Source of the DNA: Paraspadella gotoi
Taxonomy: Eukaryota; Animalia; Chaetognatha
Assembly: GCA_051294375.1 (NCBI GenBank)
Contig: CM119264.1
Coordinates: forward strand, 15,969,245-16,033,244
Length of the DNA stretch: 64,000 bases
Reading direction: 5' to 3'
Shown here piece after piece: positions 12,387-64,000 of this stretch (positions are counted from its first letter, which is position 1; every line of letters starts with the position of its first letter). The notes below the pieces were generated by a model, which made no database searches, was not told the origin of the DNA, and saw only the letters and a program-made list of their open reading frames with translations. The position numbers and the translations under genes were made by a program.

Positions 12387-13199
12387 GAAAAAGGGTCATT
12401 CAATTCAACTTCAAAATAGGCTAAATGGAGTACAAATTCAGAAAGCTGAGCTCCTGGCGATTCCGAAAATGTATTCACTTTAAGCATTTGATGCATTCTA
12501 CCCCATTTTATATCGGTTTTAATTATAATATAAAATAAAGAAACCTATCTGAAGAGTTGCAGGTCAACGAAAAGCTAATCCATCTGATATTTTTTTATGA
12601 ATTCTTTATTACTGAATTAGAAAAATGTAATAGAGAGACATTTTTAAATTTCAACTTGTATCCTTGAAAATGAAACGTTTTTAAACTTTAACCCTGAATT
12701 CTTTCTAACTGGAACGCGTTTATCAAAATGTCTCTCTATTACATTTTTACAAATGTTTTTAAGATTGCTAATCAAATTTTAATTCAATATTATTGCAGTC
12801 GTTTAGGCTGCAACTCTTCAAATTCAGTGTAGATTCATTGTAGCTCGAATTTCTTTACCATCTATTTAACTGAAGATTTTGTTCATGACTGGAAAACCAA
12901 CAGAGTAACGAGATTAATTGTTTAATTCTCCCCTTCTAAACTATCCCATACCGTGTTTAACTTCTTCACCTAGAATTTTTTAACAACCAGATTGAAAAAC
13001 AAATCTTTAAAATGTGCTTACCCATTTAACTTAACAATTTTGTTATTTACCCATTTAAAAAAAATGATTGAAAACAGAATGAACACAAATAAATAATAAC
13101 TTATTTTTTTGTGATTACTGATGACTATAATGTATTTCTCGATATATTAGCTCTAACACATCAATGATTACGTATTGTTAAGCTGAATGACCTTTCCTC
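12387..13199. mobile_element. Kolobok-like non-autonomous element, family 1
   Basis: ttaa|GAAAAAGGGTCATTCA ... TGAATGACCTTTCCTC|ttaa; an empty site with a single TTAA is seen in the related repeat at ~25100. Confidence 0.8.
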
Positions 13200-13522
13200 T
13201 TAAGCTAAAAACTAATATTTTTTTAATGAATGTTTTAAAAACAGTTAAATAGGATAAATTAAAATCATTATCAGAAGTAATTAACTTGATTAAAGATTAT
13301 TATATTAAAAAAAATTAACTGGAAAAAGCTAATAAATACTATAAATGGTGAATTTCCATATTTTGACTCAACACCCCTGGCTCGGGCGAAAAAGTATTTT
13401 TTTTAAAATAAAACTCTTTTAGTTAAAAAGAGCTTGGAAAAACGAACAGAATGACACCCAGACTGGTTAACTAATTAAAACTTAGTCGGATTTAAATTTC
13501 TGAGAGCTCTAATACGTATATA

Positions 13523-14109
13523 TATAGCATTCAGATCGACTTATTTATTGAGAAATAAATCGCTCCTCACCAGGATTCGATCCCGGTTCCTGAACGCTTG
13601 TTGTCTGGTAATTACAGCCAGAGGCTACCCAGACAACTGAAAAATCTGATTCGAATCCTCCTATTTATAACTTTAAAAACAGATTCAAATCTTTTGTTTT
13701 ATTTCGAATTAATCTGTTTTCAACCTTTTATATTTGTTATTGATTTTGTTTACTTTTGAAATCTTTAACTGAATAATTACAGTCTTGATATCTCAGCTCA
13801 AGATAAATAAAAGATCCTAAATTGTTAATTCGATCATCTGGAATTAAATCTTACTTTTATCTCACTTAACAAAATCTTGTTTTTATTTAATCATCTAATG
13901 TAATAAGTACATTATAAGAAAGATGAAATAAACTAAGTGAAGTGAATGATACCAAACAAATTAGTTAAAAGATTAATTCAATAACGCCAAAACTTCCCTG
14001 CAACGCTGCTACTGATCATGGTAATGATCCTCATCAACATCTTAGGACTCTGACGTTCAGTTGCCCGTCACTTCGTCACGCTGTGGCTGCACTCAGTCAA
14101 CCGGCCACA
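13523..14109 (+). mobile_element. Solo-LTR-like insertion carrying an antisense tRNA-like segment
   Basis: TATAGC...GGCCACA with 4-bp TSD TATA; removing it restores a perfect ~78-bp palindrome; A/B-box-like motifs on the minus strand at ~13562-13635. Confidence 0.7.
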
Positions 14110-14589
14110 TATATACTTATTAAATAAGTATATATACGTATTAGAGCTCTCAGAAATTTATATTTTTGAAAGTTTAGGGGAGAAAACGAATATGACAATA
14201 AAATAATTTCCTGGGTGCTCATTATGGATTTTCCACGCCAGATTTTGTGTCAAACCACTTCCGTTTATAAAAATAAGGATTTTTGGAAAAAAACAAGCTG
14301 TTATTCAGCAAGCATACTTCAATTAATCAAAATAAAGTTACCAATAACCTTAATATAGAACCAAATTCATATACTCGATCCTAAAACTTTTTTCATAATA
14401 TTTTTATATTTTTGGATAGAGAATGACTGGAATAATGTAAATCTTAAGTTACGTCCAAATTGGCCAGTGGGTTTAGAAGAAATCGACCAAAAACAACCAA
14501 AATTCATCTCCCTTTTTTCAATATTCTCGCCTTTTAAGATTTTCGCCGATTCTGACTTCCTGTTACAAACTTATAATTCCGCTAGTTAA

Positions 14590-15110
14590 TTTTTAGTCGG
14601 ATCTGCTTATCAGCAGATGTCGGTCCGTCCCCTCAATCTTGTCGGGCATTCACTTATATCATGTCCGAACATCGAATTATGATAAATTATGCAAAAAAAA
14701 ATGATGTCCGTCCGTCCATCCCACCTTATCAAAAAACACCAATTACTAGTGATTGGATGGATGGATTGGAATGAAATTTTGTGTGTGGGTAGGGAAGTGT
14801 GTGATTGAGCTGGATATGAAGTTTCGATGAAATCGTCCGAGTGGAAGTGAGTTTAAATGGAAAAAACAAAAAAATATATTTCACTATTTGAACACCATGA
14901 GTGAACGCTCACGAGTGGATGGGGCGATTGACCTGAAATTTTGTATGTGTGTAGGAAAGTGTGTGATTAAGCTGGAAATAAAGTTTTGATGGAATCGTTT
15001 GAGTGGAAATGAGTTTAAATGGAAAAAATAAAAAACCTGTTTCACTAATTGATTATGCTTTTTTCTTTTTATATGAAATGTAAATGCAAGATCTATTAAT
15101 TAATCAAATA
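14590..15110 (+). mobile_element. HINE family 1, 5' portion
   Basis: Same 5' stem-loop, GTCC repeats and core as the other copies. Confidence 0.75.
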
Positions 15111-15375
15111 ATTTTTATTATTCAAAAAAAGTTTTACTTTAGTACATTTTAGCCTTTTTTCTTTCAAAATCATTAAAAAGAATTTCATTTTCATTTATTA
15201 TTCTGGGGTATAATTAGTTTCAAAATTTGTTATACTTTTGACTTAATTTTGCACTCCCCCTGTAAGGAGGTTTTAGGAAAAATGATTTTAAATTTGTATC
15301 TCGCATATGCCTATGATTAATTGATTATGACTTCATTTTGGGACTATTGCCATCCCTATATCTTTGTTCCTTTAA

Positions 15376-16193
15376 GAGGAAAGGTCATTCAGCATAACAA
15401 TACGTAATCATTGATGTATTAGAGCTAATATATCGAGAAATACATTATAATCATCAGTAATTACAAAAAAAAATTTTTTATTTATATGTAAACAATCTGT
15501 TTTTAATCATTTTTTTTAAATGGGTAAATAACAAAATTGTTAAGTTAAATGGGTAAGCACATTTTTTAAAGATTTGTTTTTCAATCTGGTTGTTAAAAAA
15601 TTCTAGGTAAGAAGTTAAAACACGGTATGGGTTAGTTTAGAAGGGGAGAATTAAACAATTAATCTCGTTACTCTGTTGGTTTTCCAGTCATGAACAAAAT
15701 CTTCAGTTAAATAGATGGTAAAGAAATTCGATCTACAATGAATCTACACTGAATTTGAAGAGTTGCAGCCTAAACGACTTCAATAATTTTGAATTAAAAA
15801 TGTGATTAGCAATCTTAATAACATTTGTAAAAATGTAATAGAGAGATATTTTGAAAAACGCGTTCCAGTTAGAAATAATTCAGGGTTAAAGTTTAAAAAT
15901 GTTTCATTTTCAAGGATACAAGTTGAAATTTAAAAATGTCTCTCTATTACATTTTTCTAATTCAGTAATAAAAAATTCATAAAAAATATCAGATGGATTG
16001 GCCTTTTCGTTTGACCTGCAACTCTTCAGATAGGTTTCTTTTATTTTATATTATAATTAAAACCGATATAAAATGGGGTAGAATGCATCAAATGTTTAAA
16101 GTGAATACATTTTCGGAATCGTCAGGAGCTCAGCTTTCTGAATTTGTACTCCATTTTGGCCTATTTTGAAGTTGAATTGAATGACCCTTTTTC
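15376..16193. mobile_element. Kolobok-like element family 1, inverted second copy
   Basis: Near-identical reverse complement of 12387-13199, TTAA on both sides. Confidence 0.8.
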
Positions 16194-18045: not shown

Positions 18046-18049
18046 AGTG

Positions 18050-18772
18050 TAGGACTAAGCTCTGACGAACAAAGCCCGAGGTTTTTTTAATATATTCTTA
18101 TACCGGCCAAGGTAGAATGATGGCAATATTGTTAATATTAAGTTTCAAAAAAATCCTACCATAAATATAGAAAATATTAACCAAAATATTTGGAAAATTG
18201 ACCCCTTCTTTGGAAGATTTTTGCCATAGAAGATTTTTCCCGAATCTGACTCCCGGTTGAAAACTCTTAGAATTCCGATCGTTAGCTCCTCTTTTACTTT
18301 TACTTTAAAAAAAAATTTCACCAAAATGGACTAATTCACTTTACCATGATCGTATCATATCAAAATAACCAAATAAAATGTAAAGAAAAATTTTGAGAGC
18401 CCTTCAGACATATGGCTATCGGATTCCTGAATTTGAAGTTTATTGTAAAATCACAACATATGTTAAATGCGTTGACATTGTATTGAAGTTGAGAAATCCC
18501 TTTATTTTATATATAAAAATTGCGTCGAAAATATTTTCCCGAGCGGACCAGTCCATTTGAATCTGATGGTTTGATGTCAAAATGATGGTTATTTGTCAAG
18601 AGAAAAAAAATGCGAGCCCTTCAGATGCAACAGGATCGGAATCGAGTGTTTTTACATCTGTTTTTTACCTGAATTTTTCCCAGGGGCGTTGACATTATTT
18701 GGTAGTCAGATTTTAACGAAAATCTCCATTGAAAAAGTCTTCCTCGATTTCTAAGAACGACGTAGACTCCTA
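18050..18772 (+). mobile_element. Non-autonomous DNA element with 7-bp TSD
   Basis: TAGGA...TCCTA termini, TSD AACAGTG on both sides. Confidence 0.85.
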
Positions 18773-19126
18773 AACAGTGAGATTCCCCATCCCAATGGGC
18801 AGCACAGGCAACCCGGCTGTTACCAAAAAAGCATAAGGATCGTCGCAATCGCATAAGAAAAATCTGGATTGACGACAAATTTTGAAACTAAAAAAAGAAA
18901 ATTTGAGAAAAGAAAATTAAATTATAAACAGAAAGAAAGATTCTATTTTGTCAATAAAAAAAATTAATAAAGTACCGAAGCAAATTAAAGTAATAGTTTC
19001 TGAAAAAAAAACAAAAAAACTTTTTCATTGTTAAAATATTAACTGATCAGCAGACCCAGTGCCTAAGAAAGAAAACGGAATAAAAACCTGATGTTGCGAT
19101 TACAAAATGATAACATGCACGAATGC

Positions 19127-21678
19127 TAGACACATTTAAATCCGATTCTTTTTAAGATAGAAATCTCAGAAGAACGGCATTCTTTTCCTTTTTTTCCGTT
19201 CTATCTGAATATATGACTTTTGTTAGACTTTTTAAAATTCTTGGCCCTTCCCAGGAGCGCCAAAGTGCCACGAGCGTCTAAATTCACATATATTCGTAGA
19301 TTTCTTGAACAAGTTCTATTTAAATTTAATTTTCTAATATAATTAGTTCATTCCTGACTAGAATATTGCATTGCAAGTTAGTTAATATATTAAAAAAATA
19401 GTTTTAGGTGCTTATTATGTTGAAAAACTACTTTTACAAACCGGAAGTTACCAAAAACAGCAAAAAATTAGTTCTAAAGCTACGAACTAATTTTATAAAT
19501 TTGCTAGATATGTTACATGTTCTTTTTTATCATTTATTTCAAAAGTTTAATTTAAATATTTTATTTAGTTATTAGATATTGTTTAATTATGCAGATGCGC
19601 AAGCTTTTTTACTTTAACTTTGATGTTTAAAATGGTTGATGAACTTTCATTGTATTTTATGTCAGATACCTAAATCAATAATACCACTATATATTCTTAT
19701 AATAGAGAAATATGGTGTAAAGACATTACAAAAAAAACATTAAATGTAATCGTTATTGTAAAAGACTTCATCTTTATTTCAAACTCAATTTAAAAACAAA
19801 CAAAAATAAAAAAGTGAATAAAGAAAGTCAATCTCTTGAACCTTTGAACCTTCTCTAAATCATGGTGGTGGATGATCCCAACCACCATGGCCGTACAATG
19901 ACTCCTCCGTCTCTGCTCGCTGAGACAGAGGGAGACCTCTGGAAAGGCAATAAGCAATCAATGCCCTCTAATCACCTGTCACAACTATGACTCTCCTCAG
20001 AAGTCGTCAACCCAAATGAGCTTTCCCCTTTATTCATCTAGTCCTCATTTAAAATCAGCACGGACAATAAACATATTTTTCTTAACTAGCTTTAAAGCTA
20101 CAAATCATAGGTGACCACCATACGATTCATTTTTTATTGCTCTATCTATATATGTCACTTTTGATATACTGGATTCCTGATTTCTAGAACAAGCAGCTTT
20201 TTTATCTCAAGATGTATATTACTATCAGGAATACTGAGATTGAGAGAGAGTGAATAGGAAATGAAGGAAAAAGAATGTTTAGGTTCAGTTAATTGTTTAA
20301 AATAGAACTATTTATTAAATATAAATATAGAAAATATTAACTTGAAAAAATTATAAAAACTGTAATCGTAACTAACATTAACTAAATCAATTTCATTTAA
20401 TAAAAAAAAAATTTTGTATTAAAAAATAAAAGAATAGATAAGAATAGATAAGAGATAGAAGGGAAATAATAAGACATAAAATTAATAAAGAGAGCTCAAC
20501 ATAAAGATGGCTACCCCTACAAGGACAAATAAAAGGTAGTACCGATAAGATTGGGTGCTGAGAGGGTCAAGTCAACCTCAGTTTCTTTACCGACTAAACT
20601 GTTATATGTGGGTCACTGGGTCAGGTAATGTTTCCGTGAGGAACAGATCTAGTGCAACTCAATTTGACTTTAAATACCTGCCAGTTGCCCTCTTTTCAGA
20701 TAAGGTAGGCCAGGGCCTGTCCGTGCTGATTTTAAAATTTATTCATCTGAAGCTGTCATTTGGGTTGACGACCTCTCTGAGGAGTCATATTTGGTTGCTA
20801 CAGGTGATTAGAGGGCATTGGTTGCTTATTGCTTTTCCAGAGGTCTCCCTCTGCCTCGGTGAGTGGAGACGGGGGAGTCATTGTGCAACCGTGGTGGTTG
20901 GGATCATCCACCACCACAATTTAGAGAAGGTTCAAGGGTTCAAAAGATTGACTTTTTGTTTATTCACTCTTTTTTTCATTTTTTGTCTTTGCAAATTATT
21001 TTTTTTTTTTGTGGTTTTTAAATTGAGTTTGAAATAAAGATGAAGTCTTTTACAACAACGATTACATTTAATTTTTTTTTGTAATGTCTTTACACCATAT
21101 TTCTCTATTATAACAATATATATTGGTATTATTGATTTAGGTATCTAACATAAAATACAATGAAAGTTCATCAGCCATTTTAAACGTCAAAGGTAAAAAG
21201 GCTTGTGCGTCTGCATAATTAAACAATATCTAATAATTAAATAAAATATTTAAATTATACTTTTGAAATAAATAATAAAAAAGAACATGTAACATATCTA
21301 GCGAATTTATAAAATTAGTTTGTATCTTTAGAACTAATTTTTTGCTGTTTTTGGTAACTTCCGGTTTGTAAAAATAGTTTTCAAACTTTATAAGTACCTA
21401 AAACTATTTTTTTTAAATATTAACTAACTTGCAATACAATATTCTAGTCAGGAATGAACTAATTATATTAGAAAATTAAATTTAAATAGAACTTGTTCAA
21501 GAAATCTACGAATATTTGTGAATTTTGACGCACGTGGCAATTTGGCGCTCCTGGGAAGGGCCAAGAATTTTAAAAAGTCTAACAAAAGTCATATATTCAG
21601 ATAGAACGGAAAAAAAGGAAAAGAATGCAGTTCTCCTGAGATTTCTATCTTAAAAAGAATCGGATTTAAATGTGTCTA
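19127..21678. mobile_element. hAT-ended foldback element with ~930-bp inverted arms
   Basis: TAGACACATTTAAATCCGA termini, perfect 8-bp TSD ACGAATGC, empty site at ~29400; arms ~19127-20067 and ~20717-21678. Confidence 0.85.
20200..20950 (-). pseudogene. Decayed Penelope-like 3' fragment
   Basis: Encodes EPSLN-GGG-like and VALDLF..LPDP remnants matching the C-terminal part of ORF 33433-34734. Confidence 0.65.
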
Positions 21679-21913
21679 ACGAATGCGATGCTTAATTTTA
21701 CGAGTTCAATCTTAATTCAATTTTTTTTTTAAATAAAAACGCAGAGAGAGAGAAAGAGAGAGAAAAGAATGAAATCAAAAGGCAGAAGCAGAAGCAGCAG
21801 GAGAAAAGAGAAAAAGAATAAGCCCCTGCAGAGCCAGCTGCAGACTCGTTTTTTTTTCCTATGATTATGAATCAGTGACTAGGGAAAAGAGAGAGGGAGA
21901 GAGACATGTAATT

Positions 21914-22419
21914 TAGGAGTCTACGTCGTTCTTAGAGATCGAGGAAGACTTTTTCAATGGAGATTTTCGTTCAAATCTGACTACCAAACAATATAAACGC
22001 TCCTGGTAAAAATTCTGGTAAAATATCGATGTAAAAACACTTGATTCCGATCCTGTTGCATCTGAAGGGCTCTCAAAATTTTTCTTTACATTTTATTAGG
22101 TTATTTTGATATGATACGATCATGGTAAAGTGAATTAGTCCATTTTGGTGAAATTTTTATTTAAAGTAAAAGTAAAAGAGGATCTAACGATCGGAATTCT
22201 AAGAGTTTTCAACCGGGAGTCAGATTCGGGAAAAATCTTCTATGGCGAAAATCTTCCAAAGAGGGGGGGAATTTTTCGAAGATTTTGGTTAATATTTTCT
22301 ATATTTATAGTCGCATTTTTTTGAAACTTAATATTAACAATATTGCCATCATTCTACCTTGGCCGGTATAAGAATATATTAAAAAAGCCTCGGGCTTTGT
22401 TCGTCAGAGCTTAGTCCTG
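21914..22419 (-). mobile_element. 7-bp TSD element, internally deleted copy
   Basis: TAGGA...TCCTG, TSD TGTAATT; empty site at ~29633. Confidence 0.85.
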
Positions 22420-22759
22420 TGTAATTAAAAGAGAAAAGAGAGAGAGAAAGAAATATGAAAATAAAAGAGAGAAAATTTGTTTGTTTTGATAAAGCATAAA
22501 CAAAACATTTATTAACGGTCCAGACTCAATTTTAAGCACATCGATGATGAGAAGCTGTATATAAATTTTCAGCTTCATACACCCAAATTTAATCATAAAA
22601 AAGGCTATCTATAATTTGGAATGCTGACAACAACGCCGACGACGCCACTTATGCGCAAAAGCGTTACAATACCATCGCTAAGCGTTTGCGACGATAAAAA
22701 GCATGTTTTATTAGCAGGTTAAATAACAGCCGTTCAATGTAAATGATATTGAGACTAAA

Positions 22760-23377
22760 CAGGAGTTTACGTCGTTCTTAGAAATCGAGGAAGACTTTTT
22801 CAATGGAGATATTCGCTAAAATCTGACTACCAAACAATATAAACGCTCCTGGTAAAAATTCTGGTAAAATATCGATGTAAAAACACATGTTGTATCTGAA
22901 GGGCTTGCATTTTTTTTCTTTTGTCAAATCATCAACATCTTGTTATCAAACAAGCCAGAACAAATAGACTGCTTCTGGACGAAAAAATTATGTTCCTGTT
23001 CAACAAATGAGGTTCAATTTTAGAATCCTTTGGCAAAGTGACTGAAGGGCTCTCAAAATTTTTCTTTACATTTTATTTAGTTATTTTGATATGATACGAT
23101 CATGGTAAAGTGAATTAGTCCATTTTGGTGAAATTTTTATTTAAAGTAAAAGTAAAAGAGGAGCTAACGATCAGAATTCTAAGAGTTTTAAACCGGGAGT
23201 CAGATTCGGGAAAAATCTTCTATGGTCGATTTTCCGAACATTTTGGTTAATATTTTCTATATTTATGGTCAAATTTTTTTGAAACTTAATATAAACAATA
23301 TTGCCATCATTCTACCTTGGCCGGTATAAGAATATATTAAAAAAACCTCGGGATTTGTTCGTCAGAGCTTAGTCCTA
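22760..23377 (-). mobile_element. 7-bp TSD element, third copy
   Basis: CAGGA...TCCTA, TSD GACTAAA. Confidence 0.85.
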
Positions 23378-23541
23378 GACTAAAGAGAGATCACGGTCCA
23401 GGTTAAGAAAGAGAGAGAAAGAGAAAGGGAAAGAGAGAGAGTCAGTAACCGGCCTCTCTCTCGACCATATGACAAGTGACCAGTTGGGGTCAACCCCGTA
23501 GCGACGAAACCTTCGTCACAATACATCATACAGCAGCATAC

Positions 23542-31514: not shown

Positions 31515-33432
31515 TTTTTTAACACCGAAAAGTTTTTAATAGCGATCTTCCAGTATTATTCACATTGTAGGTATATTTTAATTTTTTTTTATTTAATAGA
31601 AAGACTTCTTTACTCCGCGTTTATTTTCTCAGTTTGGCATATGGAAGAGGTAAAAAAGGTAGTTGACTTTTTCACAGGTTAATTTTCGAGTGACAATTAC
31701 GAGCTTCCTGCCGATTTTTAAATTGATTGCGATCCCTGAGGTTCTTTGGTAAGTTTTTAAATTTTGTCTGGCAGTTATTTTTTTTCTTGGCAGTTTCCAA
31801 GATGTCCATGAGATGAAAATCATGAATATAAAAAGTTTACGAACACAGTCAGCAGAGTCGACGATGGATGAAGCGAAGAAAAATCCAGTATAACGACAAA
31901 ACGACGTTAAAAAGCGAAATTATACATAGATATATATAAATTTTATATATATTGTATTTTCATGGATATTGACTGGGATTTTTTTGGTTTCGATTCTGGC
32001 AACGAAAAATCTCCGCGCTTCCGGGAAGAAGAAACCGGTCCACGGAGTGATGAATCGAGGATAAAGAAAAGGGCGTTGATCAACTAAACGAAGGATGAAA
32101 GTTAATCCGGGTTGCGATGTGCGTGAATGGGGGAAGAATACAATTTCACTCGAAATTTCTCCATGCTGGCGGAACAGAAACCGAAAATTGTTGCTTATAA
32201 TAGTAAAATCCTAAAAATAAAGAAGAACAGGGAGATCCAGCTCTTTTGGGACTAACTTCAAGTGCTTACAGCACAGAAACGGTTTCAGATAGAAGATAAA
32301 ATCTTAAAAGTATCTCGCCAGACGTTACTATCAAAGAAAATTAATAAACAAGTTTGAGCAAACAATGACGGATCTGCCTACGATAATTAATTAATTAATC
32401 GATTAATTAATAAATTTTAATATGTAATAATTAATTTTAAATTTATATTCAACTTATCATCATCGATGTCCTTAAAATTGGGTTAGGACAGTTATTAAAT
32501 ATGTTTTGTTTACATTTTATCAAAACAAAATAATATCCTCTATTTTATTTTATGTCTCCTTCTCTCTCTCTCTCTATCTCTCACTCTCTCTCTCTCTCTT
32601 TTTATACAATTGCAACGATCTTTATGCTTTTAAGAATTTTTTAACTTGCATCATTTTTTCACATTAATTAATTAATTAATTAAAACATTTATTAATAATC
32701 ATTAGCTTTCTGGAAATATTTTTTTTCCTTTCGATTATGTTAGGAAGGTGTTTAAAAATGATCGAGAACGTAGTGTATCAAGATGGATTCAGATTTTTAA
32801 AAACGTTCACCCAAGTGATCACACACATATATACTTTAATTTAAAACCCCTTTTCGATTTGAAATTCTCAACATGAGAGATCCCGGTCGATTTTATCTGG
32901 CTCCTAAATTATGCAAATTAGCTTACGATCGAATTTGTCAGATAACGATGACGCTCTTTATTCGCGTAATTTTAAACGTTTTATTATTGTAATATAATCA
33001 ATAATTGAATATTTTAGTTTTTAGAATATATATTTTATAAATATAAATAGTTTATAGTATTTATACTAATATAACTAAGACAAAATAGCAATTAAATGAG
33101 AGCTTGAATGCTTTTTTTTCTTACCAAAATGAGATTTTTACATAAAATAAAATATTAACTATTTTGCTTGCTTAGGTTCCTTAATACATATAATATAATA
33201 TAAATTTCATTATAAATTGTATAATTCATTCGTTTAAGTTACCATTATACGTGCTTTAATAAATAGGTAAATATGGAAAAACTTGATAACAAAGATTAAA
33301 ATAACCAATAAAAATAAAATTTAAAAAAAAAAAATAATACTAATTATAATATTATCAAAAATATAAAATAATATTATTATAATATTTAAGAATTTAATAG
33401 ACATTGTGTAGGAGACGAATGGTCAAATTCCA

Positions 33433-34734
33433 ATGCTCGATGTGCTTATAAAGCGCAGAGAGGGCGGCTCATTGGAATTTTCAGTATATCGCAAACCGAC
33501 CCACACTGACCAATATATTCCCTTCGATTCGCATGCTCCCTTGTCACACAAGCTCGCCACGGTCAGGTCCCTTACCAGGAGAGCTCAACTGATTCCGTCG
33601 ACCCCCGAGCTCCAGGCCGCCGAGCTTGAGCATGTCAAAAGAGCCTTGGCGCTCAATGGTTACCCTCTGTGGGCATTCGAGAAGGCCAGGTTTCGGCTGA
33701 ACCAAGCTGAGGGCAGTGGCCACCAAGGGGCTGCCCAAGTAACCGCTGACGCAAGCTCAACCTCCGCCCCCCAGGAGGAAGAGCGAGGCCTTGCTGCCGA
33801 AGTACCAACAGCGCCCACCACAGCGCAACCGGGAGATAAGCAGAAGCGTCTCAAGACCGTAGGTCACTTGTCCCTCCCCTACCACCAGGGGATCACTGAA
33901 GCTTTGGTGCGGGTGCTAGCAAAGCAGGGGATCTCCACTTCAGTGACGACCCGCGGCTCTTTACGTGAGCAATTGGTGAAACCGAAAGACAAAATCCCCA
34001 GACCGAAAACATCAGGAGCCGTCTATTGGGCGGCCTGTGCAGGGGCGGGCAACCAAGCCTGCACAGCAGCATACGTGGGTGAGACAGGGAAGTCTCTATC
34101 AGATCGGTTCCAACAGCACAAGAAGCCGTATAAAGACAGTCGAGGCCACTACCTGTCGGCCATAGCAGAACATTCGGCCAATACGGGCCATCTGTTTAGA
34201 GAAACTGACTGTCTCATGCTGTCCCATGACCAAAACTGGTTCTCAAGAGGTATTAGAGAGGCAATTTACATCAAAGCCCTCGAGCCCTCTCTGAACCGTG
34301 ATGGAGGACGATTCGAGCTCCCTCCAAGCTACGATTCGCTCATCAAGTTGGCGGTGGAACACCCTACACCACCCCAACCGCACGGTGATTCCCCTGTCCC
34401 CACTCAACGGGTCAGGCGGAGGCCTCTCAGCAGGCAATGGACGTCCGATGCCTCTCCTGAGCCTACAGCAACTTGGTGTGACCCTTCTCACACTGAGCGT
34501 CGACCAAAACGACGGCTGCAGGAGGAAGGAGAGGAGTCTGTATCACCTGCATCCAAGCAGGCAAGAACAGGCAATCGCCCACCTCACCGGCAGGTGAGAG
34601 GAGGGCAGTCGGCAGGCTTATCAGGCCAAAGAGATATTCGAGTGGCACTCGGCATCTTCCCAAGTGGATCACTACCCGATCCCAGGGTGTCGAACTCTAC
34701 AAAAATATCTTCTCAGCCTTTGACAGGTCAATGA
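33433..34734 (+). CDS. Penelope RT thumb + GIY-YIG endonuclease (truncated ORF)
   Basis: IPMLDV, VYRKPTHTDQY, NGYP, LPY, GAVY..C..C..AYVGETG..L..RF..H, SAIAEH, REAIYI..PSLNRDGG. Confidence 0.93.
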   Translation: MLDVLIKRREGGSLEFSVYRKPTHTDQYIPFDSHAPLSHKLATVRSLTRRAQLIPSTPELQAAELEHVKRALALNGYPLWAFEKARFRLNQAEGSGHQGAAQVTADASSTSAPQEEERGLAAEVPTAPTTAQPGDKQKRLKTVGHLSLPYHQGITEALVRVLAKQGISTSVTTRGSLREQLVKPKDKIPRPKTSGAVYWAACAGAGNQACTAAYVGETGKSLSDRFQQHKKPYKDSRGHYLSAIAEHSANTGHLFRETDCLMLSHDQNWFSRGIREAIYIKALEPSLNRDGGRFELPPSYDSLIKLAVEHPTPPQPHGDSPVPTQRVRRRPLSRQWTSDASPEPTATWCDPSHTERRPKRRLQEEGEESVSPASKQARTGNRPPHRQVRGGQSAGLSGQRDIRVALGIFPSGSLPDPRVSNSTKISSQPLTGQ

Positions 34735-35225: not shown

Positions 35226-35937
35226 ATTTTGTAAATAAAAATCGTTGTAAAAAATACTAAAACTTTCGTTTTCGAATCTGCTAAGAATTTAATAATAATA
35301 ATTAATAAAAAAATTATTTAAAAAATTACTGCAAAGAAAGAATTTAAATTATTTAAAATTATTAATGAATATTTTTCTATATTTTTTAAAGTAATTTTTA
35401 GTCAACTATTCTTAACAGGAAATTTTGGTTTTATTCTTTCGGTTTCGTTACGTAAGTAGTATTAAAAAATAAATTTTGTTTTCAGAAACAAAACAAAAAC
35501 AGGAAATTTTAAATTTTTAGAACACAAGCTTGGAAAGCAGGGCAATTTTAGTGGTTAGTCTAATCTTACTTCATATACTCATAATAACAGACTTTTACAT
35601 AAAACTGATAATCATAATATTTGAAAAATATTTTTCTCTTCAACGAAACAAAGATTAAATAAAATTCTAAAAGTTAAAAGCTAAAAACTGAAAGCTAAAA
35701 ACTGAAAGCTAAATGTCATTAATTTGATAAATTCTTAGTATATACAAATTATACATATAGATAAGTGAAAAGGATCCATTCAATATCAGAATCAATGATT
35801 TAAGTATATTATGTTTGAATGATCAGGAAGAAAATTAAATACGATCTAATAAATATTACTAAATTTGAATACATATACAAATACATAGATTGGACGATTG
35901 GATCCTTTTTGTGTTTGAGGTGGTATAAATAACTGTC

Positions 35938-36169
35938 TGAAGAGACAGTAATTATTGTTGTGTTAGTGACAGAACCGTTCAATATAAGCAGTCCCTGAGC
36001 TTCGGATCAGGCTGTAATACCAGGTTACAGGCGGGTTAAGCGCTCCGTCCCTCTTAACTGCCAGACGACCACCGGGCTAGAACCCCGGACCTTTGGGTTG
36101 GGAGGCGAATGACTTGCCTCCGGCACCAATGGCCGCTGATTAACGGTTGGTGGATTTTAGTCCACCATA
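35938..36169 (-). mobile_element. Solo-LTR-like unit with tRNA-like head and twister, family A copy 1
   Basis: 232 bp, TA...CA on the minus strand, 4-bp TSD TGTC; tRNA-like segment 36065-36136. Confidence 0.85.
35988..36061 (-). ncRNA. Twister ribozyme-like motif, type P5, family A
   Basis: GCAGTT AA GAGG GA CGG AGCGCT TAA CCC GC CTGTAA-loop-TTACAG CCTGA T CCG AA GC TCAGG GACTGC; predicted cleavage between 36038 and 36037. Confidence 0.82.
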
Positions 36170-36766
36170 TGTCTCTATTAATTTGTTTAATTTTCTAATC
36201 ATAATCAAAAAACTACTTTCATTTATAAAAGAAAACAGAGAACTTTTGAGAGGGAAAACTTAACTTCCAAGATTTTAAAGAATTGCTTTTGTTTTATAAA
36301 TTTTTTAAATCAAACCTGTCAATTAATTATAAAATTAATCAAAACCTATTGTCTGTAAATAATGATAGATTGCTTTGTTAATTTTTCAATTTTTCAAAAG
36401 TGAGTGAACAAATTATGATTAAAAACAATATGAATAATGATACATTTAATTGTTAACAACAATGATGAAGGCTAACAATTAGTTGGAAAATGTCCGTTTT
36501 TATGTAAAAACATTATGTCGTTATTGTTAACCATTAAAAAGTTATTATTTCGTCTCTAAATCAAACAACAAATGAAAATAAATAATACAAGGACTAAAAC
36601 TAAAAAAAAATCTGAGATAATTTTTATAATTGAAAAAAAAGGTTGACTATGGATGCTCAAACCCTCATTCATCCTTAATTATTGGCCTATTAATAGTTTT
36701 AAAAAATGAAACTATAGTACATAGGAAAAATGGCTTTTATATTATAATAATAGTTTCAGAAGAAGG

Positions 36767-37000
36767 TGAAGAGACAGTTATTATTGTTATGTGCTAGTAA
36801 CAGAACCTTTCAATATAAGCAGTCCCTGAGCTTTGGATCAGGCTGTAACACCGTGTTACAGGCGGGTTAAGCGCCCCGTCCCTCTTAACTGCTAGGCGGC
36901 CACCGGGCTAGAACCCTGGACCTATGGGTTGAGAGGCGAATGACTTGCCTCCGGCACCAATGACCGCTGATGAACGGTTGGTGGATTTCAGTCCACCATA
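36767..37000 (-). mobile_element. Family A solo-LTR-like copy 2
   Basis: Homologous to 35938-36169, with its own 4-bp TSD AAGG. Confidence 0.85.
36819..36892 (-). ncRNA. Twister-like motif, family A copy 2
   Basis: Same fold; T1 loop CCA versus CGG (one mismatch), P1 GGCGCT, P3 CTGTAACA/TGTTACAG. Confidence 0.75.
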
Positions 37001-39869: not shown

Positions 39870-40164
39870 ACAAAAATTCATTGGTCCTTCCGTCCCTAAG
39901 TTGACGTCGATGTGGATAAGGCTGCCAAGTGCCCACTCAGCAGCACTGGAACGGGTCCTGGGCTTGGAACCAGGCTTAGGGGTTTCCCAGGCCCCCAAGG
40001 CGGTTTACGGCTATCCTCACGCTTCCCGCAGGGGAGGTACCAGGTTGGGATTGAACCCGGTACCTAGTGGTCATGAGCAGATGGCTTTACTCAATGAGCC
40101 ACAGGGTCACAAGTGAAGGTGTCATGCTTATAAACGGGGTGAACTTGGGCAATGCCCGACTACA
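39870..40164 (-). mobile_element. LTR-like unit with TATA, tRNA-like head and twister, family B (MRPL39 intron 3)
   Basis: Starts TGTAGTCGG; TATAA; A box TGGCTCATTGAG, B box GGTTCAATCCC; 3' end and TSD not resolved. Confidence 0.65.
39951..40029 (-). ncRNA. Twister ribozyme-like motif, type P5, family B
   Basis: GCGGG AA GCGT GA GGA TAGCCG TAA ACC GC CTTGGGGG-loop-CCCCTAAG CCTGG T TCC AA GC CCAGG A CCCGT; T1 TCC/GGA. Confidence 0.82.
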
Positions 40165-40238
40165 TATATTTTTTTAATGTTAGTTTGTTGTATTGATACA
40201 CTGATGCACACTAATTAGTAGTACAACAATTAAATTAC

Positions 40239-47570: not shown

Positions 47571-47778
47571 TATGGTAAAATCCACCAACCGTTCATCAGC
47601 GGCCATTGGTGCCGGAGGCAGGTTATTCGCCTCCCAACCCAAAGGGGTTTCTAGTCGGGTGGTCTCCGAGCAGTTAAGAAGAGGGATGGGGCACTTAACC
47701 CACCTGTAACATGGTGTTACAGCCTGATCCGAAGCTCAGGGTTCTGTCACTAACACAACAATAATTACTGTCTCTTCA
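47571..47778 (+). mobile_element. Family A solo-LTR-like copy 3 with decayed twister (47670-47741)
   Basis: TATGG...CTCTTCA, flanks AGTG/CGTG; small deletions and CpG-type transitions. Confidence 0.8.
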
Positions 47779-48822: not shown

Positions 48823-51800
48823 CTATTCGAGTAATCGATTCAAGACTTCGATCTGAGTCACAAAAGGTAAAATCCTCATCGCAATGAGAATCGTTTTGCG
48901 AAACAAACGCGATGAACAAGGCGCCCCAGATAGTCTACCCGTGTCATTTTTATTGTCATGACATATTTGACCGCTTTTATTTCGATTTCGATTCGATACC
49001 ATATCCACCTGACTCCTTGCTCCAGATGCCAGTTTCAAGAAGAAGAGAAATACCGGGTCACGATCGGCGTCCGCGGAATTAAATCCCGACAATTTTTTAG
49101 CGGCTAAGCGGCCTGTGAATTCGGCGATGCGGAGAATGATGAAAAGGCTGAAGTGAAAGCCGGATTCTTCGTTTAGAGAACGAACGTTTATGAAATCTAT
49201 TAGAGTCGAGTAAAGTTGAACAAAATTCATGACGATTAGATGGGAGCATTCAGATGATTTTCCCGCTGCGATATGAATCCCGGCATGTTCTAACGTAAAT
49301 AACAAGCGCCACGCATTAGTTACCATTCGCCCAACAATAAACCACGGTCGAAGTATTTGGGTGTCGTATTCCCGAAGGAATTTCAGAGGGGAATCCGAAT
49401 CCTCGTTCACCTCTGGAGCAATCCAATTTTTTTCGACCGCATCGAGCATAAAAGCGACGATTCCTCTGCAGCGATTCTTATCGAGAGTCTTGATGAGAGT
49501 TGCTAGAATCGTAATCGCAGAAACTTCATCGAGACAGCCAGTGACGGTTTTGTCGGAGCAGCCCAAAGATGGGTGGAGAGAGGCCGCCGCCACGAACAAA
49601 TGGATCCAATCCTCAGTTCCTCGCGGTGACGCCAATGAAGTCCAAAGCGTCTTAGATGCTTCTATCGCGTTTCGGCATTTTGGTTCTATCGCGGTAGAGG
49701 CTTCAATAAAGGCCGCGGCCGTTGAAAATGAAAAAGATTGGAGAATAAAGGAAGTCAGCCATGCAAACGAATCATCGCTTGTGGGCAAAGATAGAGCCAA
49801 AGATGCAGCTAACCTCGTGGCTTCCGTCTTAAGATAAACGTCGGGGAGGAAATGAAGCGTCGAAGAGTCCACGATTCTCAGGAGGCGCATTATGACGTCA
49901 AAGGGTTCAGCGATGAGTGTCAGCCACTTACACGCAGCACGTCCTTTTCGCGTGAGGTTTACCAGAAGTTCTAAGCTAAAAGACGCGGATGGGTTGGCAG
50001 GGTCGAGAAAGGCTACAAGAAAATCCATAATAATTCTCTTTGCAGTCGAATAGAATGGACGTGAAGGGTCGTGGCGAAAACGAGGTTGAAAAGCTGTGAG
50101 CGTCTCGACAATAAAGTGCTTAAAGCAGAATCGCTCCTTCTCAGTCAGAGAGACATTAAAAGATAAAAAAATATCGCGAAGAAAGTCAAAAAAGACATGC
50201 CCTACGCCACCCTTTTTATCGCTTTCGCCGTTTTCAACGCTCATCACCAAAAAAGGAATACGATCGATAATCTGTAAAACTGCGACAGATTTTTCTGTTG
50301 ACGTCAAAATTTGGCGGAAAAGTAGTTCAGCCGTTCGTCTGGCGTCTTTTAAGCAAAGGTCCAGGATTCTATTCAAAGAAACTTGAAACTCTTTGAGGAG
50401 CGAGGAATCAACGAGTCGATTCAACATAATTGTGGCTGCCTGTTCGAATTCGGTAATAGCTTCGTTGTTGGTGGGCAGAAGAAAATTAACGAGCGTTACG
50501 TTCGATTGTAGCCAAAAAAGAAAACGGACTTTCTGTTTGATAGATGAGGCTGTGAAAGACGTTATGAAAATAGATTTTAAATGTTGGGCTACTGCCGGAT
50601 CGGCGATTGCCGTCGTTGCCAATAATTCCTTCATTAACCCTTCTTCTAAAGCAAACAATTCACAGTTGACGCAGAAAAACTCGGAATATTCTGACAACCA
50701 AAGGGAGTCCTTAACGACCTGGCGCATGCAGGCAATCCTCAGATGTTTAGGAGAAGAACGGCTAATGAGCAGTTCCATTATGCTAGTCTTTGTAGGTTTA
50801 ATCGCGAATAGGTACTCTTCTCTTGCGACGGATATAACTTTCAAAAATTTCAGCAAAAAAATTTCAATATCTGGAGTCTTCAGCTCCGTTAAGAATATAA
50901 GGTTAATGGCCGAGCGAACCGTCTGGACTAGAGATTCCTCCTTTTCACGGATAAAAGCTGTTTCAGATAGACCAAAATTAATTGGTGTTGAAGCTCGAAA
51001 AAATTCCTCAAGAGACACAAGAAACTTGGAATTACAAAGACGCGTCAACGTTGTTTTTAACAATCGAGACACCATCCAATGATGATTCTTATTCATCGGA
51101 TGAATGTCTTTGGTGGACGAATAAGTCAACATTGTGTCCGGTGGATTCTCTGCCAGGTCCTCATCGATTTTGCTAGAAATGAAGCGCGATGCTTTGCCAA
51201 GCTTTTTTGACATCTTCTCTGTCTGATATATAACATTGTTAGCGGTTGTGAAAGAAAACTGGAACTCTAAATTTTGGTCGCCTCCACCATGTACCTGCCC
51301 TAAAAGATCAAGTAGGTCATTCTGAGTTTGCTTCAAAAAATCGCGATGGATCCAGTACAAGGGAAAAAGGGAAGCCGCGCTTCTTGGAGGGGTCCCTAAT
51401 TGAGCCTCTTTCCAACACACGATTAATGTGACCAACAGCTCGAAAACGATGCCGGTAGAAGCGTGAGAAAGCCAATCAGCTTCAACCATAACAATTAATT
51501 GTCTAATTAGCGACAGAAAATTTTCGTCGTCATTTTCTCCGAAGACGAGAGTATTTTGAAATATAGCGAGAAAATGGAAGAAGGAGACAAGTCTTGGGAA
51601 TGAGTTTAGATCGCTGTCGGATTCCATCTCCACCAAAAATGATGGCCATACATCCGCCTGCAATGCCGGTTCCAGTTGCAACACTGCCTTTGCCAGAGCT
51701 CGGACCCATTCCGTCCCAGCTGATCGGGTGAGCTCCGACAAAAAATTCGGGGGAAAGCGAGAGATGGAGTTTACAGCGCCCTCCAGCGCCGAACCGTCGT

Positions 51801-52080
51801 GGCGGGAAGCTACTAGAGTCGCGGTACGGGCGTGCATGCGCACATGTTTTTCGACAAGCACGGCGGCGAGAATGAGGCGCCACTCGGCGACAGAATATTC
51901 CGACGAGGCAACGGCGACGACTTGTTCGAGGGTAACCGCGACTCGCGAAACAAGAGACGGGTCCCAATCCTCGGGGTGGTCTTCACAAAGAGACGACTTC
52001 CAGGAGCAATTCCTGGAAGAGGCATCGGTTCGCAAAAAGGCACTCTGAAGATGTAAGAACTCAGATCGACATTCGAACAT
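48823..52080 (-). CDS. GEMIN4: Gem-associated protein 4 (SMN complex), intronless 1085 aa
   Basis: Colinear similarity with recalled human Gemin4 (L.xxFL..D/E...DW, EFEQAATIMLNRL vs GFQEDLNTTFNQL, WLTLIAEPFDVIMRL vs WLQTCSPFPLLFSL) and similar length. Confidence 0.75.
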   Translation of the reverse strand: MFECRSEFLHLQSAFLRTDASSRNCSWKSSLCEDHPEDWDPSLVSRVAVTLEQVVAVASSEYSVAEWRLILAAVLVEKHVRMHARTATLVASRHDGSALEGAVNSISRFPPNFLSELTRSAGTEWVRALAKAVLQLEPALQADVWPSFLVEMESDSDLNSFPRLVSFFHFLAIFQNTLVFGENDDENFLSLIRQLIVMVEADWLSHASTGIVFELLVTLIVCWKEAQLGTPPRSAASLFPLYWIHRDFLKQTQNDLLDLLGQVHGGGDQNLEFQFSFTTANNVIYQTEKMSKKLGKASRFISSKIDEDLAENPPDTMLTYSSTKDIHPMNKNHHWMVSRLLKTTLTRLCNSKFLVSLEEFFRASTPINFGLSETAFIREKEESLVQTVRSAINLIFLTELKTPDIEIFLLKFLKVISVAREEYLFAIKPTKTSIMELLISRSSPKHLRIACMRQVVKDSLWLSEYSEFFCVNCELFALEEGLMKELLATTAIADPAVAQHLKSIFITSFTASSIKQKVRFLFWLQSNVTLVNFLLPTNNEAITEFEQAATIMLNRLVDSSLLKEFQVSLNRILDLCLKDARRTAELLFRQILTSTEKSVAVLQIIDRIPFLVMSVENGESDKKGGVGHVFFDFLRDIFLSFNVSLTEKERFCFKHFIVETLTAFQPRFRHDPSRPFYSTAKRIIMDFLVAFLDPANPSASFSLELLVNLTRKGRAACKWLTLIAEPFDVIMRLLRIVDSSTLHFLPDVYLKTEATRLAASLALSLPTSDDSFAWLTSFILQSFSFSTAAAFIEASTAIEPKCRNAIEASKTLWTSLASPRGTEDWIHLFVAAASLHPSLGCSDKTVTGCLDEVSAITILATLIKTLDKNRCRGIVAFMLDAVEKNWIAPEVNEDSDSPLKFLREYDTQILRPWFIVGRMVTNAWRLLFTLEHAGIHIAAGKSSECSHLIVMNFVQLYSTLIDFINVRSLNEESGFHFSLFIILRIAEFTGRLAAKKLSGFNSADADRDPVFLFFLKLASGARSQVDMVSNRNRNKSGQICHDNKNDTGRLSGAPCSSRLFRKTILIAMRILPFVTQIEVLNRLLE

Positions 52081-52862
52081 GTCTTTATTTTAGCTATAAA
52101 AAAATAAAAGAAATGAGAATGGTAGAAAACGAAAGGCGCGGTTCAAAATCCGGCACATTTTCTGTTTTGAGCGTCAGTTTCGCTCTGCCTACTAAAAATT
52201 GTGCAGTCATTTGAAGAAATACGACACAATATTACTATATTAGGGGGAAACTAACTCAGTAAGGTGGTTAAGAAATTTGAATTAAGCACCTGCTCAAACG
52301 AAAATTTAAACATTTTTTAAAAAAAATTGAATAGATAAATTTTTTTAATATTACTCCATATATTAATTTTTTAATATTTATTTATTTATTTTTTATTTTT
52401 AAGATCAGATTCAGGTAGATTGCAAAAAGTTGTCTACACAAAGTATAATTCTTTTTTGTATATTTTGATCATAAGTGTATGAAAAATATGAAAAACTATT
52501 TATAATCATCATCATCATCATTTTTCGATTATTTTATTACTTTTTCTTAATTTTGACCAAGAAAACCTAAATATTTTTGAAAGTTGTAGTTAAATTTTTT
52601 ATTTAACTTTTTATGCTCTATCAGAATCCATCAAAAAAAGATTGATTAAAAATTTTTTTTATCATGATATATTAATATTGTAATTTTAATAGCAACAATA
52701 AAAGCATTAAAATCGAACACTTTTTAAAAATTCTTTTTTTACCTAAAAGTAGACTTCAAGACTAAAGTTTTGAACCCCCGCCCCTATTGATTTTTAACTA
52801 TATATAATCAAAACAATAATAATTTTCGTATCCTAAATAAAGCATTTTATAAATAAGTATTT

Positions 52863-60354: not shown

Positions 60355-60687
60355 TGTAGCCTGAATCAAATTCAATATAAAATTAATGAAAATAGAGTCA
60401 TCATCGGGATTCGAACCCGATGTTCCCTGGCCATGATAATTTGATCATGACCACTCGGCCATCATACACTTTTACTTATTTAATGTTAACATCTCAATAA
60501 TAATTATCAGGATCACATATTACTTTATCAGGCGCCTGCTTTAACCGTTACATATAGATCAAGCAGACTATAATTTGAACTATGAAAGATGGCGACATCT
60601 TGTGATGCTAAGTTGATGTCCGTGACTGCAATGTATTGTTGTATCACTTTCACTTTTCTCTGAATAATAAAAAGTCCGTTTCCTACA
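60355..60687 (+). repeat. 5' LTR with antisense tRNA-like segment
   Basis: TGTAG...CTACA, AATAAA near the 3' end, followed by PBS-like TGGTGAACCC (60690); minus-strand A box TGGCCGAGTGG and B box GGTTCGAATCC. Confidence 0.8.
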
Positions 60688-61218
60688 ACTGGTGAACCCT
60701 TCCTATACGAAATTAAAGCCAACCTTCTGATAAAAAACAAGCCTTAGAAAATGCAATCCAACAAAGATTAGCCTTGAAACAGAACTCATGTCTGTCTGTC
60801 TAGCTCTCTCTTGATGCCCTCAAAAGTCGTATGAATCAAAACAAACAAAATAAGTGCATCGCCAACACAGCTGACGGTCCACGGGAGGCGCCCATCAATG
60901 GAAATTCATTCTCCCTCAGGTAGGCAAGACGAGAACCGAATATTAGGCGCCTCTTGCCTTCTCTCACACTCTTTTCTCTCCCACCCCCACTCTCCCTCAA
61001 CTCCCCAACCTCGGACGACGCCGGATGAGTGGAACTGACCGACAACTCCGCAGCCACGTATAAACTCCTTCCTTTTTGGCGAGGCTACCAACGAGCGTTG
61101 GAATCAGTTTACCAACTACCTGAAGGCCGAATACGGCCGCACGAGGTCGCAGCAAGCTGCCTCATTAATTGACGGTATCCGTCGTGAAGGACGTCGCCCT
61201 TCACAACTCCTCGCGATC

Positions 61219-61710
61219 ATGAAGGAGAAGGCAGGCGACGTAAGCGTCGACGACATTCTCAAAGAGTTGTTAATACGCGAATTACCAATTGAAGTGCAAC
61301 GTAACCTGGCTGAGCGAGTAGAGAAAGTCGATGCTGAAGCAGCAGCACAACTAGCGGATTCGTATTTCGACAAGGATGGACAGACCCTTCATGTCTCCAA
61401 CACCTCGTCGACTATCAACGCCGCTGTCCCACCGCTGATGCCCGAAGATGCCGCAGAGGAAGGCGACTCCATCAATGCCATCAATCGTCCACGCCAACAA
61501 CCTTTCCGCCGCAGCAACCCGTCGACTCGATTTCCCAACAGGAGGTTCTCCGCCAACAAGGCAAACCCTCCACGCTCGTCAAATGCAGCAAAAACTACCT
61601 CCGTGGAGGTTTGTTTCTATCACAAAACCTTCGGCGATGCCGCAAGGCAATGTGAACCGGGCTGCTACAAAAACAAGGCGGAAAACTTCAGGGCCGGAGG
61701 ACGGAGGTGA
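61219..61710 (+). CDS. Gypsy gag, C-terminal part
   Basis: RRPSQLL..MK, AAQLADSY, VCFYHKTFGDAARQCEPGC. Confidence 0.85.
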   Translation: MKEKAGDVSVDDILKELLIRELPIEVQRNLAERVEKVDAEAAAQLADSYFDKDGQTLHVSNTSSTINAAVPPLMPEDAAEEGDSINAINRPRQQPFRRSNPSTRFPNRRFSANKANPPRSSNAAKTTSVEVCFYHKTFGDAARQCEPGCYKNKAENFRAGGRR

Positions 61711-63460: not shown

Positions 63461-64000
63461 CAAAACCAAATGCACAAAAACAAGCCACTCCCCCTTCTCC
63501 ACCTCCCCCTTCACCTGATTCTACTCCGCTCTCATTCTTTCCCTCATTATCCTTACCCAAAAACCAACCCCCACCCCCAATAGTGGCCTCAATTACTAAA
63601 CCAGTGACTGATGACAAACAAAACCAATTCAATATCGTCGTCAACTCCATCCTCCAACACGGCATTGACCTAGAAGCGATGGCTGCCGACCAAGCACTTG
63701 ACGCCGACTTTCAGCGCATTTTCCAGGATGCACAGACAGGTCTACGATTCCGACGCGTCCCAATCGGTGAACAAATAGTAGTCGATGTCAGCAATGGTCC
63801 CATCCGCCCATTATTCATGACGCTGACGAGAACCGCCAACGTCGCCTCCTGCTTGCCAATCTCCGACTCGAAGTGTCTCGCCTCCAACCAACAGCCACGT
63901 CAACACATCGCCAGCCTCAAATTCATATACCTACAAACCTCCGCAACGCCTCAACACGTTTTCGTCCACCGCGGAGGCGTGGACCCGCCACTCAGCGCCA

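Follow-up and report, generated by a model that had tools for sequence, protein, structure and literature searches.

Short probable LTRs with a tRNA-like segment and a predicted P5-permuted twister: a candidate Helenus-type LTR retrozyme in an animal genome

The occurrence of a tRNA-like segment and a twister-like ribozyme fold within one short repeat raises the question of what kind of mobile element would carry both. The repeat, referred to here as family A, was identified in three copies within the window, that is, the whole 64-kb stretch of DNA that was analysed, which is AT-rich (33% GC) and from whose first letter all coordinates are counted. Copy c1 spans 232 bp on the minus strand (35938–36169), has TA...CA ends and is flanked by the TSD TGTC/TGTC (35934–35937 and 36170–36173). 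Copy c2 spans 234 bp on the same strand (36767–37000; TSD AAGG/AAGG), and c3 is a decayed copy of 208 bp on the plus strand (47571–47778), the TSD of which (AGTG/CGTG) contains one mismatch. The coordinates, TA...CA ends and 4-bp TSDs that an initial annotation had assigned to these copies proved exact on re-examination, and the terminal hairpin that it described is present in c1 as a 7-bp stem at the 5′ end (36148–36167, minus strand), upstream of the tRNA-like segment. As argued below, all three copies are read as solo LTRs.

Copies c1 and c2 share 91% identity, point in one direction and are separated by 597 bp; c3 is 80–82% identical to either. We ruled out c1 and c2 as the LTR pair of a single element on the basis of their individual TSDs, their 91% identity and the absence of a PBS 3′ of c2; with its own TSD each and this degree of divergence, the two copies represent separate insertions. 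A Helitron or DNA transposon was likewise ruled out, since the TSD is 4 bp long, terminal inverted repeats are lacking and a PBS is seen (described below). BLAST comparison within the 64-kb window returned no fourth copy. Copy c3 is located immediately downstream of an exon matching mitoribosomal mL39, a protein that is animal-specific to our knowledge, and an exon of RRP36 is also found within the window. The mL39 match supports an animal host; other protein searches returned single matches at 33% and 28% identity.

Contigs of four public runs (X1, X5, X9 and X10) were aligned onto positions 35880–36230. The ends of c1 coincide with contig break points: 103, 30 and 62 contigs in runs X1, X5 and X9, respectively, depart at 35938, and 189, 35 and 96 depart at 36169, with flank agreement of ~0.4 beyond these positions. 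Such sharp breaks at both ends into unrelated flanks indicate a high-copy family with many independent insertions. Summed depth within the element exceeds that of single contigs by three to four orders of magnitude, although depth is not copy number; together with the three copies in 64 kb, we read it as thousands of copies or more. Almost all family A copies visible in the run contigs are single units, and among the 15 of 48 joints listed, none is an end-to-end joint as expected of a tandem or two-LTR form. The flanks of c1 (35880–35937 and 36170–36230) are themselves multi-copy, and c1 is therefore nested within another repeat. In run X1, 21 of the 33 listed differences within 35938–36169 are C>T or G>A changes, several of them at CpG, a pattern hinting at methylation of family A although the CpG ratio of the window is 1.0.

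The window also contains other repeats and open frames. Hammerhead-like minimal cores were observed at 12549 (plus strand) and 16029 (minus strand), one in each arm of a long inverted repeat (12423–16156) that we take to resemble Penelope-type terminal repeats. A 440-aa open frame on the plus strand (33412–34734) has no Pfam match; by its look it is presumably the RT end and part of the GIY-YIG domain of a Penelope-like element. The region 18046–23381 contains several nested long inverted repeats of up to 489 nt that are 84–96% complementary, and a single open frame of 1088 aa on the minus strand (48823–52089) matches no Pfam family and has one unnamed homologue at 28% identity.

The tRNA-like segment of c1 (36064–36136, minus strand) resembles a decayed tRNA-Gly(CCC) and constitutes a predicted internal Pol III promoter. 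ARAGORN reported no tRNA genes with default settings; with a lowered cut-off it assigned 36136–36064 to tRNA-Gly(CCC) with a score of 86.8, and 4 of 2000 shuffles scored at least 85. The segment is probably tRNA-derived, as initially proposed, but it stays below the ARAGORN threshold, its B box carries one mismatch, its T-loop is out of register and its A box is poor. Given its disrupted anticodon stem and imperfect boxes, we regard it as a promoter relic rather than a tRNA, with putative Pol III promoter activity. A second sub-threshold ARAGORN call, “tRNA-Tyr”, was rejected for its overlap with the helices of the twister fold. We also abandoned, after inspection by eye, the idea that the tRNA part is HDV-like. 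No T4 terminator is present inside family A or the second family described below.

The tRNA-like segment and the ribozyme fold had also been described as enclosed by a common 9-bp stem. In c1 its 5′ arm lies at 36140–36148 and its 3′ arm at 35973–35981 (both minus strand), with a pair probability of 0.78 when the full c1 LTR is folded, and position 36141 carries the pairing base in ~97% of depth across three runs. The stem can be formed in c1 and c2 with one mismatch each, but it is perfect in no copy and is deleted in c3. Its 5′ arm precedes the position at which Pol III is predicted to start and would therefore be copied only from the 3′ LTR of a two-LTR element.

The twister-like fold of c1 occupies 35988–36061 on the minus strand and is P5-permuted. 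Its strands follow in the order P5, P2, GA, PK2, 6-nt linker, UAA, P2, PK1, P3, P4, U-NNN-AA-GC loop, P4 and P5, with the catalytic G at 36049 and A at 36048 and a predicted cut between U36038 and A36037, as originally placed. The UAA, GA and U-NNN-AA-GC motifs are found in c1, c2 and c3, as first annotated. The fold proposed for c1 could be modelled with its two pseudoknots and with G and A at the catalytic positions, but it also has a short P2, consisting of three pairs and a one-base bulge, and a vestigial P1, reduced to a 6-nt linker with one possible pair and a 4-nt loop, two features that had gone unstated. Among the three family A copies, c1 alone preserves the full set of 18 modelled pairs. 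Copy c2, with a predicted cut at 36869|36868, has one mismatch in PK2; in c3, PK1 is broken, and the 3′ strand of P5 and the enclosing arm are lost. The five pairs of P4 are intact in all three copies, the inner pair being A-U. In the run contigs, no variant of the catalytic G, the A or UAA of family A reaches a frequency of at least 3%, and PK2 variants are minor (3–14% at 36003 and <8% at 36047).

The Infernal search against Rfam that had been suggested gave no covariance-model support for c1, c2 or c3, with no twister match at the gathering score and none at E ≤ 10, an outcome that the initial annotation had named among those that would refute it. The probable reason is that the P5 model, in which a P3 stem is absent, calls for a four-pair P2 and ~21 nt in the P1 region. 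When c1 was shuffled, a twister descriptor restricted to Watson-Crick pseudoknots matched 0 of 20000 shuffles; once G-U pairs were admitted, it matched 3 of 20000. Degenerate patterns recovered 0, 2 and 49 loci, with the required pairing in none; of the metagenome loci with the bare sequence motif, 0 of 49 had both PK2 and P4 paired. The exact family motifs were absent from the metagenome, viral and prokaryote collections.

The same descriptor scan, which demanded PK2, P4 and two P2 pairs and left P5 and the third P2 pair free, returned one other site in the window (40020–39958). This site belongs to a second element, family B, on the minus strand (39881–40166, approximate ends), which comprises a terminal hairpin, an A box-like motif from 40101, a clean B box from 40057 and a twister-like fold at 39951–40029 with the catalytic G at 40018 and a predicted cut between U40007 and A40006. 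Family B cannot be aligned with family A, the words that they share being ≤9 nt. Nevertheless, it has the same three-pair bulged P2, the GA before PK2 and the UAA at the cut with the catalytic G and A, all five P4 pairs (the inner one G-C, in contrast to A-U in family A) and a complete PK1 (2 bp) and PK2 (3 bp plus A-A), as c1 has, with different PK2 letters. Comparison of c1 with family B showed that all 18 modelled pairs are retained, 11 of them with the same letters, one with a change in one partner and six with changes in both partners. The distance from B box to cut site is also similar, 50 nt in family B and 46 nt in family A. The best Rfam match on family B was Twister-P5 (17.1 bits, E 0.16; gathering 37.6). 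Although the loose descriptor gave 0.23 strict matches per shuffled window, a descriptor with family A geometry, composed after family B was known, matched only c1 and family B in the window and gave 6 matches in 2000 shuffled windows; with P5 required in addition, there were none in 2000. No TSD was found around the element, and by analogy with family A we interpret family B as a putative LTR. The exon-like stretches on either side of it have no database match; we take them to belong to the mL39 gene.

As to whether these folds would cut, P1 is reported to be dispensable in vitro, and among ~1900 natural P1-type twisters tested, flaws in P1, P2 and P4 were reportedly tolerated and those in the pseudoknots and catalytic bases were not. 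According to a review, an altered number of P2 pairs may disturb the active site, and the inner G-C pair of P4 is nearly invariant. When folded without pseudoknots, the P2 helix has a probability of ~0, and in c2 a competing hairpin takes up the catalytic G (pairing probability 0.81). On balance, we consider the fold likely, though by no means certain, to be active in self-cleavage; the ribozyme of c3 is probably dead and that of c2 probably impaired. The palindromic linker would permit an obligate dimer in family A, where its self-complementarity amounts to –8.3 kcal/mol; in family B, at –1.3 kcal/mol, it would not. A dimer is therefore not general and not needed.

The alternative that survives best, though we regard it as unlikely, is that family A is an ordinary Helenus-type TRIM that replicates by normal strand transfer, the twister in its LTR being either a relic or a ribozyme that cuts very slowly; such a twister might, for example, have been acquired along with the tRNA head, the source being a SINE or the 5′ end of an RTE element, where twisters do occur. 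The short P2, vestigial P1, A-U inner pair of P4 and competing hairpin would all fit a relic, as would the missing Rfam support. A decaying structure, however, is difficult to reconcile with two unalignable families that share the same odd geometry through six double changes with no broken pair, with catalytic residues that show no listed variation, or with an LTR that lacks a terminator.

The LTR nature of family A, proposed in the initial annotation, gains support from one record in which a PBS follows the CA end. Run X10, which is labelled as another organism with a small share, provided three 151-nt records; two of these cross the CA end, and one of the two runs on, after one base, into a tRNA-Trp PBS. 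The 13-mer in question has 12 of its 13 positions in common with the tRNA-Trp PBS of Gypsy-32_NVi and Helenus-2_SyJa and is compatible with the CsRn1-clade PBS consensus TGGTGA(G/C)CCCG(T/A). As a rough figure, the chance of such a match is ~6e-5, allowing for 25 primers and four offsets. A PBS in this position identifies the unit as an LTR and sets its orientation, with the tRNA-like segment in sense.

Elements of the CsRn1 clade are reported to combine a Trp-type PBS, 4-bp TSDs and a CHCC Gag. The window contains a frameshifted Gypsy of this description on the plus strand (60690–63404, within a stretch at 60581–64000 that runs off the window edge), which encodes Gag, RT and RNase H. Its Trp-type PBS (60690–60699) lies behind an LTR end at 60687, and the Gag knuckle has the form C-x2-H-x9-C-x3-C. 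The sequence of this Gypsy shows that the helper type exists in the genome, the copy itself being a candidate helper only; together with the CsRn1-type PBS, it lends weight to the dependence on Gypsy proteins initially proposed. The same PBS would also suit a different and still less probable reading, by which c1–c3 are solo LTRs of an autonomous CsRn1-clade Gypsy that acquired a tRNA-twister cassette, the cut serving to process a long RNA. Only 30 letters are visible beyond the family A LTR in X10, and cleaved twisters allowed downstream translation in reporters (PMC8501958). Against this reading, a Pol III promoter fits short RNAs only, the LTR end of the Gypsy in the window is unrelated to that of family A, and the hammerhead-bearing Helenus elements that offer the closest parallel (see below) are short and non-coding.

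It is very improbable that family A is a non-LTR element, such as a tRNA-headed SINE or an Sm-alpha-like ribozyme repeat spread by target-primed reverse transcription. A Pol III promoter and a ribozyme do occur together in schistosome SINE-like repeats, and the predominance of single units would be expected of such an element. The initial annotation had pointed to variable TSDs and A-rich tails, with two-LTR copies never seen, as the signature of an ordinary SINE; what we found instead were constant 4-bp TSDs, fixed ends on both sides, a CA terminus followed by a PBS, and neither an A-tail nor a repeat tail. Moreover, 33 bases precede the tRNA head, and the ends of the element differ from the cut site. 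Least probable of all is that the likeness to a twister arose by chance in a repeat rich in GC and hairpins, since the missing Rfam match on family A and the ease with which the loose descriptor matches shuffled windows are outweighed by the null results of the strict c1 and P5-requiring shuffles and by the recurrence of the fold at a similar distance from the B box in a second family.

We favour, as more probable than not, the interpretation that c1–c3 are solo LTRs of a Pol III-driven, Gypsy-mobilised LTR retrozyme of Helenus type with a predicted twister. The initial interpretation, which had proposed a Pol III-driven, non-autonomous LTR element whose RNA cleaves itself once per LTR, is thereby partly supported; independent backing for it comes from the PBS in one record, from the compensatory changes in family B and from the hammerheads of published Helenus sequences (see below). 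In the cycle that we propose, Pol III would initiate in the 5′ LTR, at its tRNA-like segment near the equivalent of position 36136, and read through both LTRs. Cleavage at U|A in both LTRs would then release a unit RNA with 5′-OH and cyclic-phosphate ends and no terminal repeat, the two ends of which would be held together by pairing in P2, in P5, in the two pseudoknots and in the enclosing stem, an arrangement favouring ligation to a circle; tRNA ligase is reported as the favoured enzyme for circularising animal retrozyme RNA. On such a circle, tRNA-Trp may prime reverse transcription by proteins of a CsRn1-clade Gypsy across the junction, so that two LTRs are rebuilt and the circle stands in for the first strand transfer. 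Integration by the Gypsy integrase would generate the 4-bp TSD. Solo LTRs would be end products, arising through LTR-LTR recombination or from short cDNAs, and would be incapable of copying on their own, since neither the PBS nor the PPT nor the first ~33 bases would be present in their transcript.

Among known ribozymes, the fold is closest to Twister type P5 (Rfam RF02684), with which it shares the strand order, GA, UAA, the L4 motif, both pseudoknots, P4 and P5. It departs from this model in a P1 of one pair and a 4-nt loop (model ~21 nt), a three-pair bulged P2, a full P3 stem and a sub-gathering score. Because a compact variant of this kind escapes Rfam, genome surveys probably undercount such ribozymes. 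The twisters of Perere-3/RTE elements in Schistosoma mansoni (PMC8501958) are also retroelement-borne and are reported to cleave despite a weak or missing P1; by the same account, they differ in being P1-type, located at the 5′ end of a coding non-LTR element, with a TSD that adjoins the cut. The SINE-like hammerhead repeats of schistosomes, like the non-LTR retrozymes of animals (PMC6765202, PMC7229834), resemble family A in combining a Pol III promoter with a ribozyme or in forming ribozyme-made circles, whereas they are described as tandem elements with type I hammerheads and no LTR, PBS or PPT. No hammerhead core is present within the family A and B elements.

In its build, family A corresponds to Helenus (TRIMp3; Kojima 2024, PMC10886601), described as Gypsy-dependent, with a tRNA-like segment in a short LTR, a 4-bp TSD in animals, a PBS one or two bases after the LTR, common solo LTRs and some LTRs that start with TA. 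Membership of family A in Helenus is likely, the family being known here as solo LTRs. The main text of that paper, outside its references, names no ribozyme. Of the other animal Helenus LTRs inspected in its supplement, most differ from families A and B in that a T-run follows the B box. The window also contains an element of this more usual kind, a single-copy 211-bp element on the minus strand (60355–60565) with TG...CA ends, the TSD GACT/GACT, clean A and B boxes followed by two T4 runs, and no ribozyme, which looks like an ordinary Helenus-type solo LTR. The presence of the T-run in this element and in most of the other animal LTRs inspected, and its absence in families A and B, suggests that the ribozyme replaces the terminator. 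Since ribozyme-bearing and terminator-bearing tRNA-LTRs coexist in one window, they offer a direct test of whether circles replace strand transfer.

The nearest layout is that of Helenus-2_SyJa and Helenus-2_SyUm, both with a tRNA-Trp PBS like family A (PMC10886601). By eye, we identified an unannotated type III hammerhead behind the B box in the LTRs of these two Synergus elements as given in the supplement, composed of a GUC site, a 7-bp stem I, CUGAUGAG, stem II, GAAA, stem III and complementary loops; these LTR sequences contain no T4 run. A stretch near the start of the Synergus LTRs could pair with stem III in a switch-like manner. In the Helenus sequence file, where line breaks can mask a word, four hammerhead core words gave five matches, the two Synergus elements and three fungal ones not judged to be ribozymes, and six twister motifs gave three matches, none of them a twister fold in an LTR. 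The Synergus ribozyme thus differs from that of families A and B in being a hammerhead rather than a twister. Our search of the full-text literature, a scope that leaves most subscription papers and Repbase outside, brought up no account of an LTR that contains a twister or of a Helenus element with a ribozyme, in agreement with the initial remark that no description of the combination was known. If the animal class suggested below exists, it would include the first twister located within an LTR, and with it a naturally occurring, genome-encoded circular RNA replicon made by a twister.

The counterpart in function is the plant LTR retrozyme (Cervera et al, 2016, PMC4918200), reported to have a ribozyme in the LTR, a 4-bp TSD, a PBS and solo LTRs, and for which reverse transcription of a circular template by Gypsy proteins was proposed, as here. 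These plant elements have a type III hammerhead, a tRNA-Met PBS and LTRs of ~350 bp, and the available text describes no tRNA-type promoter; family A is animal and has a twister, a tRNA-Trp PBS and a 232-bp LTR with a tRNA-like segment. LTR retrozymes have been described as mainly plant elements with hammerheads, a division kept in a July 2026 preprint (bioRxiv 10.64898/2026.07.22.740005), and family A, with no hammerhead and no Met PBS, is outside retrozymes as so defined. Tentatively, and with a little less confidence than would make it our expectation, we suggest that animals hold an undescribed class of LTR retrozymes that are primed by tRNA-Trp, mobilised by CsRn1-clade Gypsy elements and equipped with a Pol III promoter and an interchangeable ribozyme (a minimal P5 twister in families A and B, a type III hammerhead in the Helenus elements of gall wasps), and in which circular RNAs replace strand transfer. 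Were this joint reading true, the ribozyme-LTR strategy would be modular and recurrent, and the twister would acquire a defined role inside an LTR. By analogy with both relatives, family A is like a plant LTR retrozyme in its putative function and like Helenus in its build.
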